DNA from: an uncultured Candidatus Saccharibacteria bacterium
GTDB taxonomy: Bacteria > Patescibacteriota > Minisyncoccia > UBA6257 > Colwellbacteraceae
DNA: 42,226 nt
Assembly (NCBI GenBank): GCA_964559765.1
Contig: CAZLHU010000003.1
Coordinates: 1 to 42,226 of the forward strand
Direction of reading: 5' to 3'
Of this stretch, positions 9,371-42,226 are shown piece after piece. A program made the position numbers and the translations under genes. Under the pieces are notes generated by a model that saw only the letters and a list, made by a program, of their open reading frames with translations, made no database searches and had not been told where the DNA came from. Positions within the stretch are counted from its first letter, which is position 1. Each line of letters opens with the position of its first letter.

Positions 9371-11083
9371 TTACTCCCTGACCACTCGGACGATTTCCTC
9401 TATCGTTGTGATTCCTTTCTCAACCTTAGTCAACCCATCCCTGAACATGGTCACCATGCCATTTTTTATCGCCGCGGTTTTTATGTCATTTAGCCCGGCT
9501 TGTTTCACTATTAGCTCTCTTATCTCCTCTGTAATCTGAAGAAGCTCGAATATGCCCACCTGCCCCTGGAATCCAGAATTGCCGCATACCTTACAGCCCT
9601 TGCCTCGATACATCATCTTAGGAACGCTTTCTTTGTCGATATCACCGGACAATTCCAATTGGGTCTTTACTAAATCTGCTATATCCTTCGTCGTCTTATA
9701 GGATTCGATGCATGAAGTGCATATCCTCCTGACCAGACGCTGTGCTAGGACTATGTTCAACGTCGATGCGAGCAGGAAAGATTGGGCTCCCATATCCGTA
9801 AGCCTGGGTATCGCCGAGGCGGCGTCGTTGGTGTGCAGGGAAGACAGCACAAGATGCCCGGTCAACGCAGATTGCACGGCTATCTCGACCGTCTCATTGT
9901 CACGAATTTCGCCGATCATGATAATGTCCGGGTTTTGCCTCATAAGACTTCTCAGGCCATTGGCAAACGTTATCCCGGCCTTAACATTGACTTGGGTCTG
10001 GTTGACTCTGGGGATCTCGTATTCTATAGGGTCTTCAACGGTCACGATGTTAACCTCCGGCTTATTGAGCATATGAAGAATCGCATAAAGCGTGGTCGTC
10101 TTGCCGTGACCAGTAGGGCCCGTCACCAGGAACATCCCGTGTGGTTTTTGTATTTCCGCATCGATTATCTTCGCCGCTTCGGGAGAGATGCCCAGCTCCT
10201 CGAAAGAAAGCGGTCTCGTGAGACTTTTTAGGAGCCTCATCTCCACCTTCTCCCCGTTCATCACCGGCATTATATTCACCCTGAGGTCGATCATGCCCTT
10301 ATCCCCGACCTCGAATCGGAAACGTCCGTCCTGGGGAACGCGGTGCTCATCGATCCTAAGACTGGCCAAAACTTTGACCCTAGCCACCAATATGGGCTCG
10401 ATCTCCTTGCTCAAGGTGGATATCTCGTGCATTATCCCATCGATGCGGTATCTTATCACGACCTCGTTCTGCAACGGCTCAAAGTGGATGTCGGAAGCGT
10501 TCAAATCGACGCCGTGTTCGATGATGCTGTCCAATATAGTGACGATCGGAACCGCTTCGGCCAGCTTGGCCAAATCGGCCTCGCCGCTTGCCGAGGCGAA
10601 TTTCTGCACATTCTCATTTATCAGTTGATTGAACTCACTGCCCACCTTCTGCTTGTACTGATTCAAGCCATATTTTAGGCTTACGGAACTCGTAAAATAG
10701 GGCTCGACCCAGGCGCCGAGATTGGCCCTCAGATATTCAAGGGTCTCGTAGTCCAGGGGGTCGGACATAGCGATCTTATAGACCTTCCTGTCCGCATCGT
10801 ATCCGAATAGGACCATCTTTTTCGCTTTGGCCGTAGCCTCCGGAATTAGATTAAGGACGTCTTCGGGAATAGTGACTTGCTTAAGATCGATGCCGGGAAG
10901 ATTGTAATAGCCCTCCAGGAGCTCCAGCATGTACTCCTCGGTTATCTTGCCTAAGCCGATAAGCACGTTGGCAATGGTCTGGCCCGACCTGTCCGATTCT
11001 TCTTTGGCCTCGTTAAAATCATTTTCGGTAATGACTCCGGATTTTAATAAGACATCTTTTAATTTTTCGTCGAAGATGGCCAT
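9371..11083 (-). CDS. pilB: Type IV pilus assembly ATPase PilB (GspE family, 570 aa)
   Basis: ASDIHFEP, PQDGR, Walker A GPTGHGKTTT, TVEDPIE, RQNPDIIMIGEIRD, TGHLVLSSLH, AQRLVRRIC..C and GC..C zinc motif. Confidence 0.95.
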   Translation of the reverse strand: MAIFDEKLKDVLLKSGVITENDFNEAKEESDRSGQTIANVLIGLGKITEEYMLELLEGYYNLPGIDLKQVTIPEDVLNLIPEATAKAKKMVLFGYDADRKVYKIAMSDPLDYETLEYLRANLGAWVEPYFTSSVSLKYGLNQYKQKVGSEFNQLINENVQKFASASGEADLAKLAEAVPIVTILDSIIEHGVDLNASDIHFEPLQNEVVIRYRIDGIMHEISTLSKEIEPILVARVKVLASLRIDEHRVPQDGRFRFEVGDKGMIDLRVNIMPVMNGEKVEMRLLKSLTRPLSFEELGISPEAAKIIDAEIQKPHGMFLVTGPTGHGKTTTLYAILHMLNKPEVNIVTVEDPIEYEIPRVNQTQVNVKAGITFANGLRSLMRQNPDIIMIGEIRDNETVEIAVQSALTGHLVLSSLHTNDAASAIPRLTDMGAQSFLLASTLNIVLAQRLVRRICTSCIESYKTTKDIADLVKTQLELSGDIDKESVPKMMYRGKGCKVCGNSGFQGQVGIFELLQITEEIRELIVKQAGLNDIKTAAIKNGMVTMFRDGLTKVEKGITTIEEIVRVVRE

Positions 11084-11127
11084 TTAATGTTGATAGATAG
11101 GCTGCCGCAAATGATCGCCTAGTTTTT

Positions 11128-11136
11128 ATTATATCA
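11128..11136 (-). promoter_or_regulatory. Extended -10 promoter (TGATATAAT) for pilB-pilC-pilin genes
   Basis: Exact TGnTATAAT on the minus strand 44 nt upstream of the pilB ATG. Confidence 0.6.
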
Positions 11137-11242
11137 GATAATCGGCCTATTAAGGACTGTGCGCCAAAAGTTAAATTAGATGGGTCCTATAGCCTAGGAG
11201 TCCACCTATAAAACCAAGGGGCGGTATCGTCACTTATACGAA

Positions 11243-11974
11243 CTACCAAACGGTACTTGTTGAAGGAAACAGTCTATTATCAGATCCGACTTGGTAGTAA
11301 TAAATATTCGGGGCACCGTCTTTGGCCGGCAGCCCACCGCCTGGGGCGGATGCTCCATACAGTGCGCTCTCGAGGACGGCTGCGATCTGGTATGCGTGGG
11401 CCGGCTTGGCGCTGTTTGAAGTTTGCGACTGGCAGACATAACGGTAGACCAAATCAGTACTGGCTGGCGTGGCATTAACGTTGGCTATGGTATTGACCGG
11501 GTCAACTGGCAGGTTAGATATAGGCGAGCCGCCGCTCAGACCAAGGAAGTTGACTGGGATCCAGCCCGTGCCGTCAACCGCAGTATACGTGGTCGAAGCC
11601 GCTTCAAAACAGAAGTTGGCCGGAAGAGTGCTGCTCACTGAGTCCGTGCCCATGTATATGGTCGCTCCACCGGTACATGTCGGAGTGCTGGTCGTATAGC
11701 CAACGCTGTATGCGATCGGTGTGGTTCCGCTTCCGCCCAAACATAGGTTACTAGTGCCGCCAAGTTGAGGAGTAGTGGTATTGGTCAGATATATGCCTAA
11801 AGCCGTCTTCAGGGTATTGAGGTCGGACACGCGCTGCGAGTCCCTGGCCCTCTTTAAGGTTTCGGCCGGATCCAACACGATGATCAATAGGACCGCCAAT
11901 ACGGCGATGATGGCGATGACTATCAAAAGTTCCAACAAAGTGAAACCTTTCTTGTTTGTATTTGCTGCGTTCAT
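11243..11974 (-). CDS. pilA: Major-pilin-like type IV pilin, downstream copy (243 aa)
   Basis: NKKG|FTLLELLIVIAIIAVLA, RDSQRVSDL, DGTGWIPVNF, NLPVDP motifs; four Cys. Confidence 0.85.
   Translation of the reverse strand: MNAANTNKKGFTLLELLIVIAIIAVLAVLLIIVLDPAETLKRARDSQRVSDLNTLKTALGIYLTNTTTPQLGGTSNLCLGGSGTTPIAYSVGYTTSTPTCTGGATIYMGTDSVSSTLPANFCFEAASTTYTAVDGTGWIPVNFLGLSGGSPISNLPVDPVNTIANVNATPASTDLVYRYVCQSQTSNSAKPAHAYQIAAVLESALYGASAPGGGLPAKDGAPNIYYYQVGSDNRLFPSTSTVW
11353..11974. repeat. 622-bp direct repeat, copy 1 (identical to 12207-12828, offset 854)
   Basis: No difference found on line-by-line reading; antisense ORFs in the track are also identical at offset 854. Confidence 0.9.
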
Positions 11975-12046
11975 AAACTATGCAAGTTAACTGTTAATAT
12001 AATGATATATCTAATCTGTGTATTTTAAAAAAGGTTATCAACAGCC

Positions 12047-12083
12047 AAAACAAAAACAGCCTCGGATACGCCGGGGCTGTTTT
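12047..12083 (-). terminator. Intrinsic terminator between the two pilin copies
   Basis: Minus strand AAAACAGCCCCGG-cgtat-CCGAGGCTGTTTTT-GTTTT: GC-rich stem with one mismatch plus U tract. Confidence 0.75.
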
Positions 12084-12105
12084 GTAACAATTCGATTTAG
12101 AGATA

Positions 12106-12828
12106 CTACCAAACAGTGCTGGTCGGAGGGGTCAACCTGCTGTCGGATCCAACCTGATAATAGTTGGCATTTGGTGCGCCATCTTTAGATGCCAAACCAG
12201 TTGTTCCTCCATACAGTGCGCTCTCGAGGACGGCTGCGATCTGGTATGCGTGGGCCGGCTTGGCGCTGTTTGAAGTTTGCGACTGGCAGACATAACGGTA
12301 GACCAAATCAGTACTGGCTGGCGTGGCATTAACGTTGGCTATGGTATTGACCGGGTCAACTGGCAGGTTAGATATAGGCGAGCCGCCGCTCAGACCAAGG
12401 AAGTTGACTGGGATCCAGCCCGTGCCGTCAACCGCAGTATACGTGGTCGAAGCCGCTTCAAAACAGAAGTTGGCCGGAAGAGTGCTGCTCACTGAGTCCG
12501 TGCCCATGTATATGGTCGCTCCACCGGTACATGTCGGAGTGCTGGTCGTATAGCCAACGCTGTATGCGATCGGTGTGGTTCCGCTTCCGCCCAAACATAG
12601 GTTACTAGTGCCGCCAAGTTGAGGAGTAGTGGTATTGGTCAGATATATGCCTAAAGCCGTCTTCAGGGTATTGAGGTCGGACACGCGCTGCGAGTCCCTG
12701 GCCCTCTTTAAGGTTTCGGCCGGATCCAACACGATGATCAATAGGACCGCCAATACGGCGATGATGGCGATGACTATCAAAAGTTCCAACAAAGTGAAAC
12801 CTTTCTTGTTTGTATTTGCTGCGTTCAT
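12106..12828 (-). CDS. pilA: Major-pilin-like type IV pilin, upstream copy (240 aa)
   Basis: Same prepilin motif and body as 11243-11974; own extended -10, A-rich leader and terminator. Confidence 0.88.
   Translation of the reverse strand: MNAANTNKKGFTLLELLIVIAIIAVLAVLLIIVLDPAETLKRARDSQRVSDLNTLKTALGIYLTNTTTPQLGGTSNLCLGGSGTTPIAYSVGYTTSTPTCTGGATIYMGTDSVSSTLPANFCFEAASTTYTAVDGTGWIPVNFLGLSGGSPISNLPVDPVNTIANVNATPASTDLVYRYVCQSQTSNSAKPAHAYQIAAVLESALYGGTTGLASKDGAPNANYYQVGSDSRLTPPTSTVW
12207..12828. repeat. 622-bp direct repeat, copy 2
   Basis: Identical to 11353-11974; identity stops exactly at the start codon. Confidence 0.9.
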
Positions 12829-12875
12829 CTTTTTTCTTTTCTTTGTTTGTTTTGTTTAGACTTTTATATGCTCTT

Positions 12876-12884
12876 AGTATAGCA
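12876..12884 (-). promoter_or_regulatory. Extended -10 promoter (TGCTATACT) for the upstream pilin
   Basis: TGn-TATACT 47 nt upstream of ATG 12828, followed by an A-rich untranslated leader. Confidence 0.6.
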
Positions 12885-12912
12885 AATACACCTGTCTTAA
12901 TCGAAATTTAGC

Positions 12913-12921
12913 TGTGGATAA
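12913..12921. promoter_or_regulatory. Consensus DnaA box (TTATCCACA on the minus strand)
   Basis: TGTGGATAA on + strand in the pilin upstream region; a 1-mismatch version lies at 12035-12043. Confidence 0.4.
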
Positions 12922-12967
12922 CGCCGTATCTACCCCTTAAACATATACCCAAGACGACTAAGGAACG

Positions 12968-14200
12968 CTACTTCCTTACGAACGCTTCCTTAGGTGAAAG
13001 CGAGCTTGCGCGCCGCGCTGGGATAAATCCGGCCAGTAGCCCGATTACAGCCGAAAAACCGACAACCAGACCGAGGAACCATATCGGGGATACGAACAGC
13101 GTAAAACCCGTACCTCCGTAGTGCTCAGCCAGAAGACTGATAAGTATGTTAAGCAACTCCCCTATACCCACGCCGATCGCGATTCCAATCACCCCTCCCG
13201 CAAGGCCCATGATTAACGATTCCATTAGAAATAGGCTGCGGACGTCGCCGTCAGTAGCCCCGATGGCCTTCATGACTCCGACCTCATACGTCCTTTCCAG
13301 GAATCCGACGATCATCGTGTTGAACATTCCGATGGCTGAAACGATTAGCGCAGCCACTCCGAAAATACCAAGGATGATCGTTATGATATTCGTCACCTGT
13401 TGGGCCTGCTGCACCAAATCAATGTGGGCGGATATTAAGAATCCCTGCCCAGTCAGCTTGCCCCGCAAATTTCCCAGTTCGGCCTCACTCGTCGCCTCCG
13501 CGTAAATCTCCTTGAAATACGGCGGGGCTTGTTTGAACGCAGTATTTGAAACCATGATGGTCGGCGATTCCGCATTATTGACCACAATTCCGGTTATAGG
13601 CATGGCGGTAGTGGAAGTTACTACGTAGGTCGAAGTGCCGTCGGCGGACGTGTAGAAAACGGTAACGCTTACCATCTTGCCAAGCGTTGAGACGCTGGCC
13701 GGAAGATTGATCAGGCGAAGCGCCTGGTTGGAAATCACGGCTCCTCCCGACTGGCCAAATCCCTGACCGATATCCGGCAAATCACCGGACAATTTGAAAT
13801 AATTCGCATCGGCTACGTCAACCAGCACCAGCCCCGAGGAACCTTGGGACATCACCGCACCCGGAAATTCAGCCACTGGGCTGACCTCTTTCACCAGAGG
13901 CAATGCGCTGGTGCTGCTAACCGTGGCCTGGGTAATAAGCAGATCACTGTCCGAGGGGTAAGAAGCCTCTATCGTGACGAGAGATTCGGGCGTTGTTATA
14001 AGTCTTCCGAGAAGAATGCCCTGCAATCCGTATCCGAGAGAGACGAGGACCACAACCGTTGCGATTCCCACCGACGTTCCTAGAATGGTGAGTATCGTCC
14101 TAGCGGGCTTTGCGAAAAAACTCCGCATGGAAAGGCGTATGAGGTCGCGCACGCTTAGTCGATTCGACACCTTATCTACTATTATTTCTTTCTGATCCAT
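12968..14200 (-). CDS. MacB/FtsX-like ABC transporter permease (410 aa)
   Basis: RTILTILGTSVGIATVVVLVSLG N-terminal TM, extracytoplasmic domain, GMFNTM...ERTYEVGVMKAIGA, C-terminal GFIPARRASSLSP. Confidence 0.9.
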   Translation of the reverse strand: MDQKEIIVDKVSNRLSVRDLIRLSMRSFFAKPARTILTILGTSVGIATVVVLVSLGYGLQGILLGRLITTPESLVTIEASYPSDSDLLITQATVSSTSALPLVKEVSPVAEFPGAVMSQGSSGLVLVDVADANYFKLSGDLPDIGQGFGQSGGAVISNQALRLINLPASVSTLGKMVSVTVFYTSADGTSTYVVTSTTAMPITGIVVNNAESPTIMVSNTAFKQAPPYFKEIYAEATSEAELGNLRGKLTGQGFLISAHIDLVQQAQQVTNIITIILGIFGVAALIVSAIGMFNTMIVGFLERTYEVGVMKAIGATDGDVRSLFLMESLIMGLAGGVIGIAIGVGIGELLNILISLLAEHYGGTGFTLFVSPIWFLGLVVGFSAVIGLLAGFIPARRASSLSPKEAFVRK

Positions 14201-14212
14201 GTTTTATGAAGA

Positions 14213-15514
14213 TTATACGGGAGAAAACGATCCGAGCTGCGGATGGCCATTGTTAAGTATGAAATCAAGCCTCTCTTTTATCCGCTCGGCCGTGTGTATC
14301 GAGAAGCCCAATCCGGCCTTGCTGCGAGGCAGGTTGAGTATTTCGCGCATGTCATCCGATGAGATCACCCCGCGAATGCGGTCGACTATGATTTCCCGCA
14401 GCTGCACGCTCTGAAGATCGGACAGTTCGCCCCTGTAATCGCTGACCAGCCAGGACTTGAGTTTCTCGACGTCATCGGCGAGAGGGGCCTCTGGATGCGT
14501 TTCAAGCTCTTTATACAGGCTCTCGACATCCCGTTTTTCTTCGATCACTTCTTCCACCCATTGGCTCACTTTGTTCGCCTTCTGCTTCCATAGCCCGAGG
14601 CCGTCGGAGTGCCACGGCCGACCAAGCATCATGCGGAATAAGTCGGCGTCTATCTTGTTTTCCAATCGCTGGCTGAGGAAGAACTCGAAGCGCTTTAGTT
14701 CCGGAGCCGAATATCCCCGAAGGAACAGGCTGGATAGCGCCTGAGCGGTCAATTGAGTCTTAGATAATTCCGGCGAAAGCTGGCTGTAGAGCCGCTGCGA
14801 AATCGTCTGGCCCACCTCCTTTGGACTGGAAGATTTATCCTCGGTTATAACTCCGTCTTTTATGAAGAATATTTTCTTGGCGTCCCTCAAACTCCACGCC
14901 TCGTGGGTGACCATAATGACCGTACGCCCGTCTTTTTCGTTCAGCTCCTTTAGGAAGGCAAGCACGGTCTCGGCGTTGGTGGAATCAAGGTTGCCCAGCG
15001 GTTCGTCGGCGACGATTATGGGCGGGTTGTTCGCCAGAGCCCTAATGATGCCGACCCGCTGCTGCTGTCCCCCGGACAGCTCGTCCGGGAAACGGTCGGC
15101 AAGCTGTTCAATGCCGACACGCTTGAGCAGTTCCATCGCCTCTACCTTGGCACGCTCCTGTGAAACCCCTAGGAACGACATCGGCAGGATTATATTTTGG
15201 ACAACGCTTAGCGATGGAATCAGGTTGAATTGCTGGAAGACCATGCCCACGCCCACCTGCCTGTATATAGCCAGCTCCTGCTTGGAAAGAGTGGAGATGT
15301 CGCGTCCGTTAATTATGATCTTTCCGTCCTGGCTCTGCTCTATTCCTGCGATCAGATATAGAAGGGTCGTCTTCCCGGAACCGGAAGCGCCGAAGAAAGC
15401 GACATACTCCCCGGGGTTTATGTCGAAAGATATGTCCTTCAGGGCAAGGTATTCCGATGGCTTGCCGTGCTCATACCAGAAGTTTACGTTCTGCAGTCGG
15501 ATTATTGGGTCCAT
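14213..15514 (-). CDS. MacB/LolD-like ABC ATPase with about 200-aa C-terminal extension (433 aa)
   Basis: Walker A GASGSGKTT, VFQQFNLI, LSGGQQQRV, ADEPLGNLD, VTH; extra sequence after about aa 235. Confidence 0.9.
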   Translation of the reverse strand: MDPIIRLQNVNFWYEHGKPSEYLALKDISFDINPGEYVAFFGASGSGKTTLLYLIAGIEQSQDGKIIINGRDISTLSKQELAIYRQVGVGMVFQQFNLIPSLSVVQNIILPMSFLGVSQERAKVEAMELLKRVGIEQLADRFPDELSGGQQQRVGIIRALANNPPIIVADEPLGNLDSTNAETVLAFLKELNEKDGRTVIMVTHEAWSLRDAKKIFFIKDGVITEDKSSSPKEVGQTISQRLYSQLSPELSKTQLTAQALSSLFLRGYSAPELKRFEFFLSQRLENKIDADLFRMMLGRPWHSDGLGLWKQKANKVSQWVEEVIEEKRDVESLYKELETHPEAPLADDVEKLKSWLVSDYRGELSDLQSVQLREIIVDRIRGVISSDDMREILNLPRSKAGLGFSIHTAERIKERLDFILNNGHPQLGSFSPV

Positions 15515-15528
15515 ATCGGTTATGCGAT

Positions 15529-15957
15529 CTATTTGGCGAGGAGGCGGCTGACGAGTTCGACTATGTCCTTGGGCAGATTCTCTCCCTTGCGCAGATATAT
15601 GTCGACGCCAGCCTCCTTGGCTTCGGCTTCAAATTCCTTTTCTGCGTGGTCGGAAAGCATGACTACCCTCGTCTCAGACATTAGCGGATCTGCTTTGATA
15701 CGCTTCACGAAATCGAAGCTGTATCGCGGGTCGATGACGGTTCGGCCGCCGACCTTCTTCGGCAGGGATAGGTCGAGGAACACTATGCTGGGTCGCGAGG
15801 CGGGATCGACGACTGTGCGTTCGGCCGCATCCAGATCCGCAGCCACGGAAAGTTCGCAGCGGTCTTCGAACCCGTAGATCCAGAATATGTCATGGAAATA
15901 TATCCTGATTACTTCGTCATCGTCGACGATCAAAACCTTTGTCTTCTTGTCTGCCAT
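15529..15957 (-). CDS. Stand-alone response-regulator receiver (142 aa)
   Basis: VLIVDDD, IVFLDLSLP (phospho-Asp), MLS, YLRK; no output domain; start overlaps the upstream stop (TAATG). Confidence 0.85.
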   Translation of the reverse strand: MADKKTKVLIVDDDEVIRIYFHDIFWIYGFEDRCELSVAADLDAAERTVVDPASRPSIVFLDLSLPKKVGGRTVIDPRYSFDFVKRIKADPLMSETRVVMLSDHAEKEFEAEAKEAGVDIYLRKGENLPKDIVELVSRLLAK

Positions 15958-18900
15958 TACGGTTGCACCTTCTGCAGGAATTGGAATGTGTTTTCGAAAT
16001 TATTGAGTATGACGTCTAGAATCGACTGGGATTGCTCGGAGACCACTATTGTCTGCGTCGGATAAACCGCCGTATTGGACGCCTGATCGGTCGACGATAT
16101 CTGCACCCGGTACACCGCCCCCGGAGTCAGGTTGGGCACGATGACGACGTGGGTCAACGTGTAACTGGCAAGGTCCTGAATTGTATGGGAGAAGGTCTGC
16201 TGCGTCGAACCCACGCCTGAGTCGTAGTTAACTATCGAATTGGATGGTTTGTCGGTGCTCCATCCGACTATGGCTTCGGCAACATTCGGCGTCTGAGGGT
16301 CGATGATGGTCTGAATCTTTATATTGGATATCTTCGGGGGCGTCGTGTCCTTCAGTGTGGTAACTTTTATATTGTTCGCTGCGCTAACCGGATTGCCCTC
16401 GGCGGTTTCCCCGGAAGCCGAAACCTGATAAGTCTCCGCCGATGGGAGGTTCTGGACCTGCACGTCATGGATCGTGACTGGCGTATTGTCGGTTATTGTC
16501 TGCACCGTCCCCGTCTTCACATCCTCGTATTGCACCACCGAGCTGGTCAGCATGTCCGTCACCCACGTGACATTGAACCCGCTGGTCGTGACATTGGTCA
16601 CGTCCGCGGTCACCTTCGAGGCAGCCGTCGTGAACGTTATATCCTTGCTCTTGCCAAACACTCCGGGGATGCTGAATGATTCCGCCATGATGTGATAGGT
16701 CGTGTTCGGAAGCAAATCAGTCAGATTTAAAACGTGGTCGGTTACCTTGTCGTTCACATCGGATGTCTGGGAAGGATACGGGGTCTGTGAGGTCGGGTCG
16801 TAATTGCTGCCGGCTGCATAGTATAGGACTGAGTACGAATTTATATTTGTCGTCCAGTCTACCTCGGCGCTGTTTTCGGTTACATTCGACACCGCCGGCG
16901 TGCTCAGGAACGGCGGCACAAGGCTCGGCAGCGCCGAAGCTATGCTGTTCTCGATCTCCTGCTGGAACTGATATGCGGTCGTCGGGCTGGTCGATGCCGC
17001 TGTGAGATATTGCGTCATAAAAGTGCCGGTGGAGGAAGTAGCCGTGTTCCCGGCGTTGTCTATCGCCTTTACGTAATAGCTGTAGTTCGTTCCCATCAGC
17101 AACCCGCTCAGAGTTATGGCGTGGGATGTGAGGAATGTCCCGTCAGCGGCGGCATAGCCGAAGTTGGTTCCGGAACCGTATTCCACGAACCCTATCGCCG
17201 ATTTTGATGTATTAAAGGAAACGGTTGCATTGAACGCGGTCGAGGTCGCGGTCACGTTGGTGATCGTCGGCGGAGTTATGTCCGGGGCCGGCGCGCCACC
17301 GCTCGAGCTGACATAGATATACGTCTGCTGGCTACCAGAAAGCGTGGAGAAGGAACTTTCTCCAGAAGACCCCTCGACTCCTATGTTCGACTTGGAATGG
17401 GCGGTGAGATAGTAGGTTGTCGACGCCGTAAGTCCGGTCAGAGTAACGGCATGGTATGTCGTAAGAGTCGGATCTTCTGTCGTGCTAGAGGAATATTCGC
17501 CGCTCTCGATCCCGTACTCGACCCAGCTGGTCGAAGGCTTGTCGGTATTCCAGGTGACTATGGCCGAGGTCTCGTTCATTACAGGCACTTTGACATAGGA
17601 TAGGACTGGCGGCGTATGGTCGGTCGTAGTGAATGTGTAATATTCGTTGAAATTGTTGTCGATGTGCATTATGTCGTTGGCGTCGTCAGACTGCAGGTAG
17701 TAGTAATATGTAGTACCTGGAATCAGGCCATCAATTGAAACCGTATGCTGGAATGGCGCCCCTCCACCGCCTACGAACGTGGACGTACCGGTTTCAGTCG
17801 CACCGACTCCTCCGCCGATCTGCGTAGGGTCGAAATAGTAAACATAGGAATCCGAGTCCATTGTGGTGTCCCAAGTCACAATAGCCGAAGTGTCGCCGAC
17901 GTATGTCGTTGTGGCATCAGAGAATACCGGAGCCTGCGTGGTAAAGAAGAGGTCCGAGGACGAAGCCGCGTTTCCTGCAGCGTCCACAGAACTGGCCACA
18001 TAGTGATACATGGTGTCCGGGGTAAGTTCGGTCAGGAATATCTGGTGCGCCGTGACCAAGGTGGAGCTCGATATACTGTCAGGATAAACTCCGGTGGAAG
18101 TGCCGTAAGACACCTCTGTGTCCGAAGGCTTATCAGTAGTCCAGGCGATACCCGCCGTGTCGCCGCTCAGGAAAGAAATATTGACGTTGGTGATCTGTGG
18201 AGGCTGACTGTTGGTTGTGGCGAATTGGTAGTATGCCCCGCCGTTCTTATCGACCGATACCAGGCCAGACGCATCTGTCGACTGTACGTAGTAATAATAT
18301 GTCGTGTCGGGGACCAAATCCGGCAGCGACACCGAGTGGAAGTAGGGCGATGACGATCCCGAAACAAGGTCGGCGCTTCCGGCCGACATACTGAAAGAAT
18401 CGGTGGACGTGGAATAGAACACATAGGAGTCGGAATCGGTGTTTGTATCCCAAGTTACGACGGCGCTCGTGTCTTGCGGGCTTGCCGAGACCAATGTTAT
18501 TGCCGGGCCGCCGCCGTTTCCAGTCGAGGTTACGAACACTTGGGGCGTGAAGGCCGAGATATTCCCATTTGTGTCTTCCACCCTCATCTCATATGTATAG
18601 GCCGTCGACGGCATAAGCCCCGTGTCTGTATACGAGGTCATCCCCGCGGATGATATGGTCGCAAGCGGCGCAAAGGCCCCGCCCCCGACCGAACGGTATA
18701 TGTCATACTGCTTGAAATCAGGCATGGTGCTGGTCGCCCAAGACACGTAAGCGCCATAAGCTCCCGTTTTAAGGTTGGTGATATCCTTGACCACCAGGCC
18801 TGACGGCATGGCCGGACCGGAGAACGTCTGGATATAATCGTTGCCGTACACGTCTTCCAACTCGACATAGACAACAGGAGTGCTAGTGGTGGTACTGGCG

Positions 18901-21900
18901 TTTCCGAAAGACAGGGCATGGGCCGATGTGTTTGTGGCATCCCCGCCGACCGCAACGAACGGCAATATCGAATCCGGCGTCGAAGCGGTGAACGGCGAGC
19001 TAGAAAGCCGATACGAGAAATTGGCATCGGCCGAGAAGTTGAAATTGACGATCCCCTGGCTGACGTCCATCGTGAGTGAGTTTACGGCCGGAGGATTGGT
19101 GTCTAGGACGAACGGGACGCTTGTTGCCGTTGCAATATGGTTGGCCAACTGATGGTCGTCCAGCGTTACGAGAACTTCCGTGTCAGTTGAATACTGCTGC
19201 CCCACGTCCGCCGACGAGTTCCAGACGATAGTGGATGTCGGAGAATAGTCGCCCTGAGGAAGCATGGAAATGTCTTCGGTCGGATCAGGAGTAATAAAGG
19301 TATTCATTGGGTTCCAGGTACTCCCGCCGTTAAGCGAATATTGATAGCTTGGCGTTACGGTCGATGTTGCGTGGCCGTTGGCAGCGTTGTCCGTCAGCGA
19401 ATCTGAATCCATGCCCGAAAACTGGAACTGGACCAGATCGGGAGTCGAAGAGGTCCCGTGCTGCTCTAAGGCGGTAACACCAGTTCCCCCGCCGATATCC
19501 GCATTGAACTGCGGCGGAGCGTTGACGACGTATTTCACCGTCACATTGGATACGGTTGGCGTTGCGGCGCCAGTCGAACTTTCAGCGACTTTATACTGCC
19601 AATACTGCGCGCCGGTTTGAAGCGAAGAAGGGATAGCCACCCCCGAACATGCAACTACGGTCGACGAACCGTCCGGAGTCGTTGCGCATCCAGTGGTCGA
19701 GTCCGTAAGGCTGACCCAGCTTGCGTTGGATAAATCAGACGCGTTATCGCCTACGCGCACAGAAAGAGCTACCCCGGTGTTGGTCGGCACCGTCTCCGTC
19801 CAATCAATCTCCCCCACCGCATCGCTCGGATCGGTCGTGTTATACGGAGAAGAAATAACAGCTCCTGGCAGATATGCGTTATACGATATCGTCACGCTGT
19901 TTAAGGACGGCGTTATCGTAGTATTGGTCGTTGAAAGTGTGGCTTTATACTGTATGTAAGCATCTCCGTTAGTCACGCACCCGCCCGACGCGAGCGGTTG
20001 GCCGTTCGATATCTGCGAACAGGTCGACCAGTCGGGGGCATCGCTTGTATCTGGGTCGTTGAACGATCGGGCCTCCATAGTGAGGGTCTCGCCTCCGGTT
20101 TCATTCCACTGCAGGCTCCCCCATGATACGGAATCGCCTATGTCTATCGGCGAAGACGTGAAGGTGCCCGTCGATGGATATGCGCTGAAGTCGAAACCCC
20201 AGAAATTGGAGCTGCCGTCGCCGGGTATGGCATAAAGATAATTTCCCGTCCCCGGATAGGCCAACAGACTCGAATACCCGCCGCTTGTTATATTGCCGGG
20301 CGCGTTGGGCATGATGTCCCAGGTATTATCGGACACGGTATAGCGCCACAGCGCACTGCCGCCGCCCTGAACCGCAAATATATAATCGCCGTCATTGGGG
20401 TAGATAAGGGATCCGCCAGATACGTCACCGGGGGCATTAGCCATCGAAGACCAGGTGCCGGCGGAAATGGAATATCGGTAGAAATTAGCGGTGCCGTCGC
20501 CGGGAAAGGCGTAAATATAGTTGCTATCGGGACCGTTAGTGATCTGGGGATATGCGCCGATGGTCGGAGGCGTTGGCAAGCCGCCCCACCCGCCGCCGAT
20601 AGAATATACCTGGAACGTGTCTTGGGCGTATCTAGTGTAGTAGTCAAAGAGACCGTAAATGTTGTTGCCGGACCCAGGGTATGCGAGCGAACCGGCAATA
20701 TTACAGAAATAACACTCGTTCGGACTGGCTAATTGGATCGTGGAATTTTGAGATATGGAATAGCCGAAAAACGGGGCCTGATATGTGTTTATCCTAGCGG
20801 AGTTGCCGATTACCGGCGGAAATACATATATATTGCCGTTGACGGTCACCGCGCCGCCGGCGTACGGGCCGCCGCTTAGATAATTCCACGAGCCGTTGTC
20901 ATAGTCCCAATTCGGAGCATAAAGATTGTTGTTGTATCCGGACACAAGGTTTGTACTATTGCCCGGTATGTTGTTAACGGAGCTCCAACCGTTATCTGCG
21001 AGCGGCGAGTAGCGATAAAGAGTGGTGCCTCCACCGCCCTGCAGGGCATAGAGATTTCCATCGGGGCCCGGCGCAATGGTTCCCCCGCCGCTAAATCCGC
21101 CCGGGGCATCCGTCATAGTGGTCCATGTGCCCTGTGATATCGAATAACGCCATATGGCATTGCTACCACCTCCTTGTAGGGCATAAATATAGTCGCCCGT
21201 GCCGGGGTAGGTGCAGCTAGCGCCATCGCCAGGCGTGCCAGGTGGAGAATTTTGAAAGCCCGTCGTTCCGTCAGCGCCTCCGTCAAATCCATATATGCCG
21301 CCTTTGGCGGTGCAGAAACTATAACCAGTAGTATATTGCGAACGATTGTAGCCTACCGGATAAGCACTCCATGAATCATTGGATATGTTGTAGGCCATAA
21401 CGTTTTCATCGTATGGGTCTCCGTAAAGAACCGCATCGGCATAGATAACACCTCCGCCTGAATAGGTGAGGTAATAATTATAATTCCATTCCGATTGGCC
21501 AATCGGACCAAAAGCACTCAAAGTGCTCCATGTCCCTTGTGAAATCGAATAGCGCCAAAATCCCGTACGAGCCAGACCAGATGGAGCCGCATAAATATAG
21601 TCATCTCCCGTGGAGATGAGATCATTCTCTCCTATACTGCCGGGTGCGTCCGGCATTTGAGTCCACGAATCACCAAGGACGGAATAACGCCAGAGCGAAG
21701 CGCTGCCCGCACCTTGTGAGACATAGATATAATTGCCATAGCCCGGATAGACCATCTGCGCATCCTCACCAAAAGCCACGGGGGTGTTTCCTATAGTCGT
21801 CCATGGCGGAGGCGAAGGATAGGCAGCGAGAATAACGCTCGACTGAGTACTGGATCCGTTCACTAAAGTATTTGAGAACGCCCCGGCATTGAAGTCGGCG

Positions 21901-22160
21901 CCGGACTGCTGTGTCACTGTTTTTGTGCCGATACTTAGACTTATATCAGTCGAGGCGGAGTAATTTGTCGAGCTTGCGAATTGGTTCCATCCGGATTCGT
22001 CCGCGGGGTGGGTCGCTGTATTTAAAGACGTTCCCCCACTCCAATCCTGCTGATTAAAGGTGTAGGTCTTCGCATCTGCGGGGAAGGTGCCAAAGACAGT
22101 TAGGAGCACAACTCCAGCAATAACCGCAACAGAAAGACCACCAGCCCTCACCCTCTTCAT
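15957..22160 (-). CDS. Giant secreted surface protein (2067 aa): Kelch-like beta-propeller plus FN3/PAP-N-like repeats
   Basis: N-terminal signal peptide; about 11 YIYA..G.G....WRYSIS..TW repeats; about 8 A.V.W.T.KPS/DS repeats; amphipathic C-terminal helix SILDVILNNFENTFQFL. Confidence 0.8.
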   Translation of the reverse strand: MKRVRAGGLSVAVIAGVVLLTVFGTFPADAKTYTFNQQDWSGGTSLNTATHPADESGWNQFASSTNYSASTDISLSIGTKTVTQQSGADFNAGAFSNTLVNGSSTQSSVILAAYPSPPPWTTIGNTPVAFGEDAQMVYPGYGNYIYVSQGAGSASLWRYSVLGDSWTQMPDAPGSIGENDLISTGDDYIYAAPSGLARTGFWRYSISQGTWSTLSAFGPIGQSEWNYNYYLTYSGGGVIYADAVLYGDPYDENVMAYNISNDSWSAYPVGYNRSQYTTGYSFCTAKGGIYGFDGGADGTTGFQNSPPGTPGDGASCTYPGTGDYIYALQGGGSNAIWRYSISQGTWTTMTDAPGGFSGGGTIAPGPDGNLYALQGGGGTTLYRYSPLADNGWSSVNNIPGNSTNLVSGYNNNLYAPNWDYDNGSWNYLSGGPYAGGAVTVNGNIYVFPPVIGNSARINTYQAPFFGYSISQNSTIQLASPNECYFCNIAGSLAYPGSGNNIYGLFDYYTRYAQDTFQVYSIGGGWGGLPTPPTIGAYPQITNGPDSNYIYAFPGDGTANFYRYSISAGTWSSMANAPGDVSGGSLIYPNDGDYIFAVQGGGSALWRYTVSDNTWDIMPNAPGNITSGGYSSLLAYPGTGNYLYAIPGDGSSNFWGFDFSAYPSTGTFTSSPIDIGDSVSWGSLQWNETGGETLTMEARSFNDPDTSDAPDWSTCSQISNGQPLASGGCVTNGDAYIQYKATLSTTNTTITPSLNSVTISYNAYLPGAVISSPYNTTDPSDAVGEIDWTETVPTNTGVALSVRVGDNASDLSNASWVSLTDSTTGCATTPDGSSTVVACSGVAIPSSLQTGAQYWQYKVAESSTGAATPTVSNVTVKYVVNAPPQFNADIGGGTGVTALEQHGTSSTPDLVQFQFSGMDSDSLTDNAANGHATSTVTPSYQYSLNGGSTWNPMNTFITPDPTEDISMLPQGDYSPTSTIVWNSSADVGQQYSTDTEVLVTLDDHQLANHIATATSVPFVLDTNPPAVNSLTMDVSQGIVNFNFSADANFSYRLSSSPFTASTPDSILPFVAVGGDATNTSAHALSFGNASTTTSTPVVYVELEDVYGNDYIQTFSGPAMPSGLVVKDITNLKTGAYGAYVSWATSTMPDFKQYDIYRSVGGGAFAPLATISSAGMTSYTDTGLMPSTAYTYEMRVEDTNGNISAFTPQVFVTSTGNGGGPAITLVSASPQDTSAVVTWDTNTDSDSYVFYSTSTDSFSMSAGSADLVSGSSSPYFHSVSLPDLVPDTTYYYYVQSTDASGLVSVDKNGGAYYQFATTNSQPPQITNVNISFLSGDTAGIAWTTDKPSDTEVSYGTSTGVYPDSISSSTLVTAHQIFLTELTPDTMYHYVASSVDAAGNAASSSDLFFTTQAPVFSDATTTYVGDTSAIVTWDTTMDSDSYVYYFDPTQIGGGVGATETGTSTFVGGGGAPFQHTVSIDGLIPGTTYYYYLQSDDANDIMHIDNNFNEYYTFTTTDHTPPVLSYVKVPVMNETSAIVTWNTDKPSTSWVEYGIESGEYSSSTTEDPTLTTYHAVTLTGLTASTTYYLTAHSKSNIGVEGSSGESSFSTLSGSQQTYIYVSSSGGAPAPDITPPTITNVTATSTAFNATVSFNTSKSAIGFVEYGSGTNFGYAAADGTFLTSHAITLSGLLMGTNYSYYVKAIDNAGNTATSSTGTFMTQYLTAASTSPTTAYQFQQEIENSIASALPSLVPPFLSTPAVSNVTENSAEVDWTTNINSYSVLYYAAGSNYDPTSQTPYPSQTSDVNDKVTDHVLNLTDLLPNTTYHIMAESFSIPGVFGKSKDITFTTAASKVTADVTNVTTSGFNVTWVTDMLTSSVVQYEDVKTGTVQTITDNTPVTIHDVQVQNLPSAETYQVSASGETAEGNPVSAANNIKVTTLKDTTPPKISNIKIQTIIDPQTPNVAEAIVGWSTDKPSNSIVNYDSGVGSTQQTFSHTIQDLASYTLTHVVIVPNLTPGAVYRVQISSTDQASNTAVYPTQTIVVSEQSQSILDVILNNFENTFQFLQKVQP

Positions 22161-22282
22161 ACTATGTTTAAATTATCCCCCTATATATAGTACGAAATCA
22201 AGTGTACATGCTCGCACAACGGCATTGCATAAAGAAGATTGCGTAAGCTTCCCGGCTTAATTGAGGCCAGCTATGTAATTTA

Positions 22283-22291
22283 TGATATAAT
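22283..22291 (+). promoter_or_regulatory. Extended -10 promoter (TGATATAAT) for pilMN-pilO
   Basis: Exact TGnTATAAT 17 nt upstream of ATG 22309. Confidence 0.6.
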
Positions 22292-22308
22292 TTTCAGAAG
22301 ATAACGAC

Positions 22309-23736
22309 ATGGATTGGTTTATAAAACTTTTCACCAGAGAAGAGAAGATCGCTGGACTAGAGGTCAGAGACGATTATCTGCGGATGGCTTTGTTGCAACC
22401 CGGGAAAATCGGGGACAAGCCCTCCACAGAGATAAGATTTCTAGGAGAAGAACCGTTGGACGAAGGCGTTGTAATCGGCGGTTCGATAAAGGACAAGGAT
22501 AAGTTCGTTAAGTCAGTAAAAAAGCTGGTTAATAGGTCGCCTGTAAAGATAAGCTTCACGATGGTTTCCATCCCCGCTGACGGGGTGTATTCCAAGGTCT
22601 CTTCATTCCCCAAGACGATCATGGGCGATAAGCTAAAAGAATCGATGGATTTGGCTATGCAATTCCAGCTGCCGGACAAGCCCGAGGAGACTTATGCCAG
22701 TTGGGAAAAAATTGGGCCCAGCGACCGGAATGAGGTGTTGGTAGCGACTATATTAAAGAAACCCATAAACGAGCTTGTCGACGCCCTAAGCTCGGCGGGC
22801 CTGCGGGTCGTCGCCGTTGAATTCAGCGCTCTTAGCATATGCAGGTCTATGGATATAAAGGATTCCGAGACAGTTCTGGTTAGGGCGCCGCAAATCTCGG
22901 GCGTGGAAGTATTCATAGTCAAAAATAGATTACCCTATTTCGTTAGAGTTTTGCCGAAAGAATTTTTATCTTCAAAGGATCTGTTGGATAAGGAGGTTGA
23001 TAGGATAGCAGATTTCTTCGGAGCAGATAAAGGCGATATCGACCGGAGGATAGACATAAGCGAAGCCAAAATTATTGATTCGCTATCCGGCAATCCGAAG
23101 ATTGGCGAAAACTACGGCAAATGGCTGTCCAGCATCGGCATTGCGATGCGAGCAATGATCCCGCGGTCGGCGGACGACATGATCAGCCTGATGTCTGTAG
23201 GCACAGAGGACGCCTATGAATACCAAAAGGCCGTCGCCTTCTCCGAATTCATCCTAGAGAGTTCAATCGCCGTATCGCTGTTCTTCATCGCCGTCTTTAT
23301 AATAGCGTTGGCATCTCTTTCGTCGTTCCAGCAATCCGTCATCAGACAGACAGCCTCGATTTCAACAACTCCTCTGCCGAATAACTCGGATCAATTACAG
23401 GCCCAGGCCGGACAGCTTAACAACACCCTAGCGATAACAGTGGGGATATTGAGGGGAACGGTTGATTGGTCTGCCGTCTTAAAGAAACTGGATGCGGACA
23501 TAATACCCGGGATAACGTTGAATGGCATAAGCATGCCATCGCAAAACGGCACCATGTCGATCAGCGGCATCGCGCAGACAAGGGACATACTTAACAATTT
23601 CAACGCGACCCTAGAAGCCGATACTTTCTTGTCCAACGTCAATCTGCCGATAACCAATATCGATCAGTCCAATAACCTGCCATTCAATATCACCTTCACA
23701 ATCTCCAATCCACAAGCACTTTACTATGCCCAGTAA
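22309..23736 (+). CDS. pilM: PilM-PilN fusion protein (475 aa)
   Basis: N-terminal IAGLEV..DYLRMALL and A.LRVVAVE actin-like PilM features, one TM, then PilN-like WSAVL..L...I.L.......SISGIA..R..L..F...LE....LSNV. Confidence 0.75.
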   Translation: MDWFIKLFTREEKIAGLEVRDDYLRMALLQPGKIGDKPSTEIRFLGEEPLDEGVVIGGSIKDKDKFVKSVKKLVNRSPVKISFTMVSIPADGVYSKVSSFPKTIMGDKLKESMDLAMQFQLPDKPEETYASWEKIGPSDRNEVLVATILKKPINELVDALSSAGLRVVAVEFSALSICRSMDIKDSETVLVRAPQISGVEVFIVKNRLPYFVRVLPKEFLSSKDLLDKEVDRIADFFGADKGDIDRRIDISEAKIIDSLSGNPKIGENYGKWLSSIGIAMRAMIPRSADDMISLMSVGTEDAYEYQKAVAFSEFILESSIAVSLFFIAVFIIALASLSSFQQSVIRQTASISTTPLPNNSDQLQAQAGQLNNTLAITVGILRGTVDWSAVLKKLDADIIPGITLNGISMPSQNGTMSISGIAQTRDILNNFNATLEADTFLSNVNLPITNIDQSNNLPFNITFTISNPQALYYAQ

Positions 23737-24745: not shown

Positions 24746-25225
24746 TCACTGAGATATTTCCTGCCAAGTCGTGGTCGCTATCTGCCCGTACTCATTGGGC
24801 TGGTCTAATATGACGTTGACCTGGACTTCGATGCTGTTATTAGCGACGGCACCAGTCGAATTAATTACTATAGGGGTGGATGTCGATCCAGTATATCCTG
24901 GGCCATTAAGAACACTCACTGTGGCGCAGCCTGCCGGCGGCGTTCCGCAGCCATTGGATACGAAAGGTATCGTATAGGGCGTGCTGGTCGGTGCCGAATA
25001 TGTATAGTTAACGGCAAGCTTTTGCAGGGCGTCCCTGGCCCCGGCTTCAGCGTATTCCTGTGCGGCCACCGTATTGGATTGATTGTATGAACTGGAAGAT
25101 TCATTCAAAGACAAAGCGGTTATGCTGATGGCGACGATCAATATCAAAAGGACTATGACCAATATCGTCGTTAAAGAGGCCACTCCGTCAGAATTTGATT
25201 TATATATGCCCGCTTTTTTAATCAT
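24746..25225 (-). CDS. PilX/GspK-like minor pilin lacking E5 (159 aa)
   Basis: KSNSDG|VASLTTILVIVLLILIV; A..YAEAGARDAL..L PilX-type helix; INSTG...W.EI C-terminus. Confidence 0.75.
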   Translation of the reverse strand: MIKKAGIYKSNSDGVASLTTILVIVLLILIVAISITALSLNESSSSYNQSNTVAAQEYAEAGARDALQKLAVNYTYSAPTSTPYTIPFVSNGCGTPPAGCATVSVLNGPGYTGSTSTPIVINSTGAVANNSIEVQVNVILDQPNEYGQIATTTWQEISQ

Positions 25226-25253: not shown

Positions 25254-25781
25254 CTAATGACTCAACTGGAATGTTGTCTGATTGGTCTGTGAATAGCTCC
25301 AGTCCGGACTGGAAGAATTGTACTGCACATTCATAGCCATCTGGACACTGACCACCGTCTCCCCCAGCGTACTGTTTGTATTCTGTATATTCGTGAAATT
25401 GAGGCTGGTCACGACCACGGAGGTGGATGTCATTGGTTCTGAGCTCGATGTGCAGGAACCTCCCGCTTGTCTATATACTACGCCGTTTATCAGACAATAT
25501 GAGACCGATGCCCCGGATCCAGACACGATAGTGAGCGTGCTTGAAGATGTGCCAGCGGCGGATGGAACGGTGACCGTGCTGGCATAGCCGACATCCTGAC
25601 CCACCTTATCCAAGACGAAACGGATATTGGAGTCCACTTCACTGCTTGAAGTTATCTGGCCTATCCCTCTATTAATGGAGGTAAGCGAGGCGACAAGCAT
25701 GACCATGACGATCATAAGTATCGCCACATATATCAGGAGCTCCAACAGAGTAAACCCCTTATTGGACTTAAGCTTTCCCAT
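25254..25781 (-). CDS. PilW/GspJ-like minor pilin (175 aa)
   Basis: SNKG|FTLLELLIYVAIL; N.RF.LDKVGQDV..A; VTSLNFT motifs. Confidence 0.8.
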   Translation of the reverse strand: MGKLKSNKGFTLLELLIYVAILMIVMVMLVASLTSINRGIGQITSSSEVDSNIRFVLDKVGQDVGYASTVTVPSAAGTSSSTLTIVSGSGASVSYCLINGVVYRQAGGSCTSSSEPMTSTSVVVTSLNFTNIQNTNSTLGETVVSVQMAMNVQYNSSSPDWSYSQTNQTTFQLSH

Positions 25782-33476: not shown

Positions 33477-33553
33477 TCCCATCACCGACGCGGAGCCGAT
33501 GCTCCGAATAAACCCGTAAACGCTGTTTATAGAGAACGCGCAGCGGGTTTATT

Positions 33554-33562
33554 TGTTATAAT
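33554..33562 (+). promoter_or_regulatory. Extended -10 promoter (TGTTATAAT) for the PAS-kinase pair
   Basis: Exact TGnTATAAT 45 nt upstream of ATG 33608. Confidence 0.55.
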
Positions 33563-33607
33563 TAAGATTGGTAAATATCTAAAAACGTCGAGTTAAAAAA
33601 TAAAAAT

Positions 33608-36198: not shown

Positions 36199-36212
36199 CA
36201 GGTTAGGCGGGG

Positions 36213-42225: not shown

Positions 42226-42226
42226 G

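Follow-up and report, generated by a model that had tools for sequence, protein, structure and literature searches.

The window analyzed here is a stretch of 42,226 nucleotides from an uncultured Candidatus Saccharibacteria bacterium (GenBank assembly GCA_964559765.1, contig CAZLHU010000003.1), whose sequence is also present in wetland and peat metagenomes. Its minus strand carries, between positions 12968 and 22160, four tightly packed genes which encode, in this order, a giant secreted protein, a stand-alone receiver, an ATP-binding cassette (ABC) ATPase provided with a large C-terminal extension and a MacB-type permease. An earlier sequence-only reading of this DNA had considered the four genes as a dedicated system that displays, anchors or releases the giant protein through its C-terminal helix and is gated by the phosphorylated receiver. 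The analysis reported below identifies the giant, the receiver, the ATPase and the permease as a conserved four-part module that is specific to Patescibacteria. A mode of action in which the giant would be tethered and actuated by the ABC pair is proposed and weighed against several alternatives.

Gene organization of the locus

The coordinates of the genes and of their principal features are collected in Table 1. Reading of the DNA bore out the gene coordinates and the junctions announced by the sequence-only reading. The stop codon of the giant gene and the start codon of the receiver gene have one base in common within a TAATG overlap (...caaccgTAATGgcagac), and the receiver, ATPase and permease genes are successively separated by gaps of 14 nt (atcgcataaccgat) and 12 nt (tcttcataaaac). 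The domain identities were likewise recovered with Pfam, which returned Response_reg for the receiver, ABC_tran followed by about 200 additional residues for the ATPase, MacB_PCD and FtsX for the permease, and Pur_ac_phosph_N, fn3 and Kelch families for the giant. In agreement with the reported lack of a membrane-fusion or TolC gene, no HlyD/membrane fusion protein (MFP) or TolC/OEP family was detected by Pfam in the open reading frames (ORFs) of at least 120 aa present in the window.

The operon had also been attributed a single upstream promoter region. The interval shared with the divergent pilMN gene is indeed the sole sizeable intergenic region upstream of the giant and contains one sigma-70-like -35/-10 match, at positions 22201-22172. 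Promoter-like matches over positions 11000-22600 are nevertheless not enriched, with 11 occurrences vs 11.2 in shuffled sequences. The presence of one promoter for the whole operon is therefore plausible and this region is retained as a candidate only.

Table 1. Positions of the four genes and of their main features in the window.
Feature	Position	Strand	Basis
Giant secreted protein, 2067 aa	15957..22160	-	ORF and Pfam; orthologs adjoin ABC pairs
Sec-type signal peptide codons, MKRVRAGGLSVAVIAGVVLLTVFGTFPADA followed by K	22071..22160	-	Only hydrophobic segment of the giant; cleavage site between ADA and K read from the sequence
Conserved C-terminal module of the giant: last FN3-like domain (aa 1957-2040) and terminal helix (aa 2041-2067, nt 15960-16040), motif ...SQSILDVILNNFENTFQFLQKVQP	15960..16292	-	Profile matches, conservation, hydrophobic moment
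Receiver, 142 aa, stand-alone	15529..15957	-	Pfam Response_reg, 43.8 bits
ABC ATPase, 433 aa with ~200-aa extension	14213-15514	-	Pfam ABC_tran
Nucleotide-binding domain (NBD) of the ATPase, aa 1-225, MacB/LolD/FtsE/BceA type	14840..15514	-	ABC_tran, 123.6 bits
C-terminal extension of the ATPase, aa ~236-433, all-helical tandem duplication	14216..14809	-	AlphaFold2 (AF2), hhalign, conservation in homologs
MacB-type permease, 410 aa	12968..14200	-	Pfam MacB_PCD and FtsX
Intergenic region, 148 nt, common to the giant and the divergent pilMN gene; candidate promoter	22161..22308	-	One sigma-70-like -35/-10 match

Co-occurrence of the giant and the ABC pair

The linkage between the giant and the ABC pair was examined in both directions, the ORFs of the related loci being called by a simple longest-ORF script. 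The forward scan was performed on contigs drawn from one genome per species, using a motif of the ATPase extension derived from a 9-sequence alignment, and produced 29 loci, 23 of which displayed enough flanking sequence. An orthologous giant was located within 10 kb in 14 of these 23 informative species-level loci, in a co-directional upstream, a divergent or a downstream position. The permease gene is found downstream of the extended ATPase in nearly all 29 loci, and the receiver gene precedes the ATPase in most of them and follows the permease in three. The order giant, receiver, ABC ATPase and permease was encountered again in five out of six further contigs carrying Pfam labels (from a close relative, a Doudnabacteria, a Parcubacteria-group metagenome-assembled genome (MAG) and two others). 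In addition, the terminal motif of the giant, described in the next section, is present in all three loci that were read at the DNA level (L113-L115).

The reciprocal scan was carried out on metagenomes with the last 110 residues of ten giants and returned 80 loci, of which 70 are non-redundant. The extended ATPase and the permease are encoded 0-3 ORFs away from the giant in 45 of the 70 non-redundant loci (64%), where they lie downstream and co-directional (38 loci), divergent (6) or upstream (1). Five more loci display a receiver gene immediately 3' of the giant and are then interrupted by the end of the contig. Only 4 negative loci offer at least 3 kb of visible sequence on both sides; the remaining negatives are contigs ending early, such as L102, whose overlap with L005 shows the ABC pair to be present. 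When positive or fully informative reciprocal loci are counted, the linkage reaches 50 out of 54. A two-way linkage of this kind, in genomes of ~1000 genes, is therefore not the product of chance, and the neighborhood check suggested by the sequence-only reading speaks in favor of a dedicated system in both the forward and the reciprocal direction. The sequence distances observed for the C-terminal module of the giant also co-vary with those of the ABC components (r 0.67-0.81), and the giant and ABC genes have therefore been inherited together.

The giant protein and its terminal helix

From its N-terminus onwards, the giant displays a signal peptide (aa 1-30), a box of conserved sequence, Kelch-like repeats (aa ~120-660), a middle region and then, from aa 1228 to 2040, FN3/Pur_ac_phosph_N-type repeats numbering at least eight; an amphipathic helix forms its C-terminus. 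The box placed after the signal peptide, TYTFxQxxWxGG, recurs in many orthologs. A single hydrophobic stretch is found in the entire protein, at aa 3-21, and the corresponding signal is Sec type I-like and devoid of lipobox cysteine. No C-terminal transmembrane segment is detected by hydropathy and no wall anchor (LPXTG, SLH or transmembrane) was recognized by sequence inspection, Pfam or hydropathy. The helical hydrophobic moment culminates in the last 18-residue window, with a value of 0.54 (mean 0.15, standard deviation 0.09). The earlier description of a protein with a signal peptide, lacking a C-terminal transmembrane segment and ending in an amphipathic helix is thus upheld on each of these points.

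These properties set the giant apart from two common classes of large exported proteins. It carries no sortase-type C-terminal sorting signal (LPXTG, PEP-CTERM or GlyGly-CTERM), as a C-terminal hydrophobic segment is lacking and the helix is amphipathic and rich in D, N, E and K. Nor does it resemble a type I secretion substrate, given the presence of an N-terminal signal peptide, the absence of any RTX family match, the MacB-type nature of its ABC partner and the lack of MFP or outer membrane factor. The N-terminal heads differ among the giants, being Kelch-like in the window and RCC1-like or of the DUF2341/Laminin_G (LamG-like) type in others, and the C-terminal ~750 residues are common to giants with differing heads, as expected for an adhesin whose tip varies and whose base is constant.

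Across the family, the terminal motif reads TPxQxES(I/V)xD(V/I)IxKNF(E/D)(D/E)(T/S)FxF(L/I) and is located 0-6 aa from the C-terminus in all 92 ORFs matched by the profile of the C-terminal module. A search of 1.84 billion representative proteins returned 1140 matches at E<=1e-10, and the motif is terminal in 108 of the 149 top representative clusters, with a median length of 1833 aa and a maximum of 6321. Word-indexed protein searches with the giant C-terminus, either as a single sequence or as a profile, returned one match plus short fragments, from which no neighborhood could be read. In the alignment of 145 distinct termini, which was made with a pattern that itself constrained some of the scored positions, the conservation of the polar positions (P 94%, S-3 90%, D0 81%, K+4 83%, N+5 98%) equals that of the hydrophobic ones (I+2 94%, F+6 90%, further F 84-100%). 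Because the polar positions are as fixed as the hydrophobic ones, the conservation of all helix faces favors a specific protein interface rather than a lipid-seeking helix. The divergence of the last 33 residues of the giant (0.42) is also lower than that of the permease ectodomain (0.57) and of the ATPase extension (0.62). Of all features of the giant family, the terminal helix varies the least in the sequences compared.

This pattern bears on the possibility of a LolCDE-like function in release or maturation. The helix would then remain in the outer leaflet after Sec export, and the ABC pair would extract the giant once, leaving no lasting tether, and deliver it to the wall, the surface layer or the medium. 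The strongly amphipathic character of the helix would suit such a function, as would the linkage data and the established action of MacB/LolCDE-type transporters on extracytoplasmic substrates. The near-invariant asparagine, serine and lysine of the helix (98%, 90% and 83%) would however be needless for lipid association, and a freed giant would still have no recognizable wall anchor of the LPXTG, SLH or transmembrane type. A regulatory receiver and an elaborate ATPase extension would moreover be unexpected for a constitutive maturation step. A release function of this sort is considered improbable.

The ABC pair, its cytoplasmic extension and the receiver

The permease displays hydrophobic segments at aa 33-51, 267-285, 322-359 and 362-380, and is matched by the Pfam families MacB_PCD (aa 35-248, 39.1 bits) and FtsX (aa 279-403, 75.6 bits). 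The corresponding topology is made of a first transmembrane helix (aa ~33-51), an extracytoplasmic MacB_PCD domain of ~210 aa and a C-terminal FtsX domain with three further transmembrane helices, four in all. The best NCBIfam matches of the NBD are LolD (195 bits), FtsE (192) and MacB (192), all of which remain under the equivalog cut-offs. The AF2 model of the ATPase (predicted local distance difference test, pLDDT, 82) consists of the NBD and an all-helical extension. When this full model was submitted to Foldseek, the matches were confined to the NBD, the top ones being MJ0796, the MacB NBD, BceA, FtsE, LolD, YbbA, HrtA and YtrE, with template modeling (TM) scores to target of 0.86-0.97. 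Since the NBD belongs to the MacB/LolD/FtsE/BceA clade and is associated with a four-transmembrane permease bearing an FtsX domain, the ABC core is assigned, by its sequence, to the type VII (MacB/FtsX-type, mechanotransmission) superfamily.

The extension is modeled by AF2 as 9-10 helices (pLDDT ~81) and is conserved across 116 full-length homologs. It is built as a tandem repeat of a ~70-aa unit, supported by an hhalign probability of 96% (E 2e-9). A G-h-G hairpin closes both units and reads GLGLW and GLGFS in the protein of the window, as compared to GGVGLW and FGVGL in the consensus of the family. These hairpins recall helix-hairpin-helix motifs by eye, a likeness which has no database support and is not claimed here. 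Neither a PDB sequence match (best E 0.28) nor a significant fold match (Foldseek best E 1.1, TM score <0.3) was obtained for the extension, and no Pfam family exceeded its gathering score, sub-threshold MRS2-like matches being limited to 11 of 29 members (best E 0.00022). In particular, Pfam detected no DNA-binding family in the common extension. The extended ATPases form a large family, the best 120 matches being >50% identical over their full length, and the closest relatives of the window protein originate from Patescibacteria MAGs (Paceibacterota, Wolfebacteria, Doudnabacteria and others). In three loci (L084, L093 and L104), the extension is replaced by a winged helix-turn-helix (HTH) domain (HTH_24, 27.5 bits, above cut-off), the ATPase is reduced to 330-340 aa and no receiver gene is present. 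Judged from these variants, the cytoplasmic end of the ATPase is a variable signaling module.

The receiver is a bare Response_reg domain, for which neither an output domain nor a DNA-binding domain was found with Pfam and NCBIfam. The phospho-acceptor set DD/D/S/K (VDDD, FLDL, LSD and RKG positions) is kept in 52 unique receivers adjoining this ABC family, and the protein corresponds at this level to a CheY-like stand-alone receiver by its acidic pair, its acceptor Asp, its Ser and Lys residues and its length of 142 aa. Its gene is directly upstream of the ATPase gene in most loci and is included in the fetched locus for 30 of the 45 giant-linked ABC pairs. Gene order and intact phospho-acceptor residues are the two observations that suggest a gating of the ABC machine by the receiver. 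A two-component island lies elsewhere in the window, at positions 33075-36587. It encodes a receiver, a PAS protein, a PAS-HisKA-HATPase_c kinase and a second receiver, and displays a GC content of 0.44-0.45 vs ~0.52; its kinase is a candidate partner of the orphan receiver of the operon.

The signal could also travel in the opposite direction. The module would then be an outside-in contact sensor, in which a pull or a binding event at the head of the giant is transmitted through its C-terminal module and the permease to the ATPase dimer. From there, the C-terminal domain of the ATPase would relay the signal to the receiver or, where this domain is a winged HTH, to DNA. The linkage data would serve this reading equally well, and a swappable C-terminal extension, with a winged HTH found where the receiver gene is missing, would be in keeping with it. 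A precedent exists in the solved type VII ABC coupled to two-component signaling (BceABS entries), and the arrangement is reminiscent of BceAB reporting its own activity to BceS. Receivers are however normally phosphorylated by kinases and not by ATPases, the conserved module includes no kinase, the nearest one in the window being ~12 kb away, and the common extension shows no detectable DNA-binding family. Such a sensor is regarded as unlikely, although it retains some credibility.

Genomic surroundings of the module

In the window, the operon is embedded in a type IV pilus cluster, with two pilin genes, pilB and pilC downstream, and pilMN and pilO in divergent orientation. This position between pilMN/pilO on one side and the pilin, pilB and pilC genes on the other could designate the operon as an accessory of the pilus, involved in pilus assembly or in the operation of a pilus-tip adhesin, and a pilus gene is also found near the module in L005, L011 and L055. 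Homologs of the pilus genes of the window were nevertheless found in only 3 of 112 other loci. Elsewhere, the module adjoins many unrelated neighborhoods, including division and cell wall (dcw), leucyl-tRNA synthetase (LeuRS) and thioredoxin genes, and the giant that is adjacent to pilus genes in the window is a different and unrelated protein. The pilus context not being conserved, membership of the operon in the pilus system was rejected, and the role of a pilus accessory is regarded as next to negligible in probability.

This second giant (25788-32168, minus strand, 2126 aa) has no Pfam match and does not carry the terminal helix motif. It adjoins two minor-pilin-like genes (24746-25225 and 25254-25781; PilX_N, N_methyl), and its C-terminus, ...NWSP, was seen again in an ORF of L008 that is 288 aa long; the giant may be associated with the pilus. 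The tandem pilin genes of the cluster (11243-11974 and 12106-12828, minus strand) are 100% identical over a block of at least 300 nt (11353-11652 = 12207-12506) and encode proteins that differ only near the C-terminus, which suggests a recent duplication or gene conversion. A further large ORF (38119-42226, minus strand), which encodes at least 1327 aa and gives weak matches of the Ig-like and TIG types, extends beyond the end of the window.

Several variations of the surroundings were noted in the related loci. Small ORFs of the GIY-YIG type (100 aa; L044/L049) and of the PD-(D/E)XK type (136 aa; L024/L045) are inserted between the receiver and ATPase genes and look like mobile endonuclease genes. 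In one subclade (L038, L040, L048, L061/L062, L090 and L100), a multi-transmembrane protein of 600-705 aa with Bact_surface_Ig-like and CarboxypepD_reg matches is encoded between the giant and the receiver, and may be an extra component of the module. In Wolfebacteria-like loci (L002/L003, L045, L078 and L102), the module is placed directly beside a division/cell-wall-type cluster, which was recognized in L002/L003 from Pfam labels (MraZ, Methyltransf_5 of the RsmH type, PBP transpeptidase and Mur ligase) and is presumed in L045, L078 and L102 from matching ORF sizes.

Proposed mode of action

The mode of action that we consider moderately probable is one of tethering and actuation. The giant would be held by the permease through its terminal module, its state would be changed by ATP-driven mechanotransmission, and the extension and the receiver would provide cytoplasmic control. 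It can be summarized as follows. The giant, presumably exported by Sec in view of its signal peptide, has no membrane anchor of its own. Its last FN3 domain and amphipathic helix would dock on the extracytoplasmic domain of the permease dimer. By this docking, the giant would be secured to the cell and coupled with the ATPase cycle through mechanotransmission, in the manner of FtsEX with EnvC or PcsB. ATP binding and hydrolysis would then switch the state of the giant, from held to released or towards an extended or activated form. The duplicated helical extension would act as a cytoplasmic control surface read by the phosphorylated stand-alone receiver, control presumably running in that direction, and the variable N-terminal head would constitute the distal, target-binding end. 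The lack of any other anchor in the giant, the absence of the motif from the other giant of the window and the solved members of the class with extracytoplasmic protein partners (YbbAP-TesA and FtsEX entries in the Foldseek list) are counted in support of this model, together with the two-way linkage, the terminal position, fixed polar residues and low divergence of the motif, the co-variation of distances, the type VII identity of the ABC core and the deletion suggested by L082 (see below). After control for the NBD, the giant C-terminal module also tracks the permease, with partial correlations of 0.25-0.49 for the ectodomain and 0.17-0.41 for the transmembrane region, more than the cytoplasmic extension (0.07-0.16); these values speak weakly for the model, being drawn from pairs that are not phylogenetically independent.

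A number of observations weigh against it. The receiver is missing from the fetched locus of 15 of the 45 giant-linked ABC pairs, and the winged-HTH variant fits signaling to DNA better than the gating of a pump. The terminal helix might also pack on the last FN3 domain of the giant itself or mediate oligomerization. In the sparse data of two wetland metatranscriptomes, contigs identical to parts of the receiver, ATPase, permease, pilin and pilB genes were found, and none of them lies on the giant or spans any junction. Finally, the triad of receiver, ATPase and permease is well conserved, with no giant within 10 kb, in a clade of Yonathbacteria-like loci (at least 8) and in one Wolfebacteria genome, where it is adjacent to the dcw cluster. 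The ratio of MacB_PCD to NBD distances is 3.4 in the giant-less clade vs 3.1, a difference which gives no clear sign of a relaxed constraint on the ectodomain. A triad without a nearby giant implies either that the ABC system works without the giant or that the giant is encoded elsewhere.

The clean negatives of the forward scan belong to a single clade of Yonathbacteria-like synteny. In two related loci of the same synteny, L063 and L028, the giant occupies precisely the interval from the flanking gene to the receiver, which indicates that the giant has been lost or relocated in the Yonathbacteria-like genomes. The neighbors of the triad in these genomes were read by eye as LeuRS-like, sigma-like and MnmA-like and are not alternative partners. 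In another locus, L082 (1199-2050), a C-terminal fragment of the permease (aa 292-410) abuts a C-terminal fragment of the giant (aa 1892-2065). This arrangement is consistent with the footprint of one deletion across divergent genes, which would have removed the body of the giant, the receiver, the ATPase and the N-terminal part of the permease, or with an assembly artifact.

The giant-less triads would be readily explained if the giant and the ABC genes were co-regulated and physically independent, the triad being a general envelope pump or defense system (for instance for peptide or lipid removal) and the adhesin being co-transcribed only because the cell would require both under the same circumstances. 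The very wide distribution of the ATPase family in the phylum points in the same direction. The linkage nevertheless outlasts inversions and reorderings, at the frequencies reported above for the reciprocal scan, the invariant terminal motif calls for a conserved partner, and the remnant found in L082 would represent a joint deletion. Physical independence is thus held to be decidedly improbable. A usual occurrence of homologous ABC pairs without a giant would have told against the sequence-only reading; this is not what was observed, although the Yonathbacteria-like clade departs from the rule. The idea of a dedicated system keyed by the C-terminal helix therefore stands as far as the two-way linkage and the constancy of the helix are concerned, and has to be qualified for that one clade.

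Patescibacteria account for a considerable part of the diversity of bacteria and spend their life attached to other cells. We know of no account of how they hold and control very large surface proteins without the usual anchors, and no description of the linkage, the terminal motif or the ATPase extension was found in the literature searched on giant proteins and adhesins of Patescibacteria. The module offers a concrete and testable answer to this question and recurs across many sampled lineages of the phylum. A tethered and actuated giant would bring a new type of partner into the mechanotransmission ABC class, namely an adhesin-like giant recognized by a terminal helix of 25 residues, and would add a new cytoplasmic control domain to this class. 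The terminal motif further provides a simple signature for the retrieval of partner proteins from metagenomes. Should the contact between helix and permease be real, it would form a compact pair suited to structural work and offer a means of studying host attachment in organisms that are mostly unculturable. A more ambitious picture, which we regard as quite unlikely, is that of a surface actuator of episymbiotic ultrasmall bacteria, where a phosphorylation-controlled MacB-type motor would work a giant "leg" or tether of micrometer scale through the terminal helix in order to pull, stiffen or let go of the host, or would report host contact through the duplicated helical domain.

Comparison with known systems

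The ABC core was compared to the characterized members of its class. MacAB-TolC, which acts on extracytoplasmic substrates, counts among the closest matches of the NBD and of the permease alike, in sequence and in fold. It differs in that no MacA/HlyD adaptor or TolC family is present in the window ORFs of at least 120 aa or in the annotated neighbors of six related loci, that the NBD and the permease are separate polypeptides here, that the likely host is a single-membrane cell, and that the MacB equivalog scores (86/192) are far from the cut-off of 966. The module does not belong to the LolCDE systems either, with scores of 46 vs 362 for lolCE and 195 vs 307.75 for LolD. The YbbAP-TesA complex of E. 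coli is a solved MacB-type ABC with an extracytoplasmic protein partner, and YbbA is one of the fold matches of the NBD (9ge8, 9ge6). Its partner is however a small enzyme and not a giant repeat protein, and the comparison covers the ABC core; to our knowledge, YbbAP-TesA has no receiver and no ATPase extension.

Two other systems are comparable by their wiring or by their function. In BceAB-BceRS of Firmicutes, a type VII ABC is connected to two-component signaling both by function and by physical contact (BceABS structures). BceB has ten transmembrane helices as opposed to the four of the permease described here, and the histidine kinase and DNA-binding regulator of that system contrast with a bare receiver devoid of DNA-binding domain and with the lack of a kinase in the module, which is therefore not a BceAB system. 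In LapA-LapG-LapD of Pseudomonas, a giant repeat adhesin is kept or released under a cytoplasmic signal relayed across the membrane. The retention and release of a giant adhesin is a functional analogy only, involving no homology: the Lap system relies on type I secretion, a periplasmic protease and a cyclic di-GMP receptor, whereas the giant described here has a Sec signal and no RTX repeats.

The closest working analog is, by functional comparison, FtsEX with EnvC or PcsB. FtsEX (partners EnvC, PcsB, CwlO and RipC) performs no transport; helical elements serve it to retain an extracytoplasmic partner protein, which is switched by ATP-driven mechanotransmission. Both systems are of type VII, with an NBD of the FtsE/MacB class and a four-transmembrane permease bearing an FtsX domain, and the fold matches include FtsE and FtsEX entries. 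The module is nevertheless distinct from FtsEX. Its permease ectodomain is MacB_PCD and not FtsX_ECD, the equivalog scores are far under the cut-offs (192 vs 264.85 for FtsE, 25-43 vs 225-255 for the FtsX models), and a separate pair made of a true FtsE and an FtsX_ECD/FtsX protein is encoded beside the triad in L002/L003. In place of a coiled-coil hydrolase activator, the partner here is a giant FN3 protein that carries a single helix at its end, and the ATPase extension of ~200 aa and the attached receiver gene are additional differences. The module is, as far as its sequence tells, a variant of type VII ABC mechanotransduction, and suggests that a giant adhesin can be held, operated or used for sensing in a manner not yet described.

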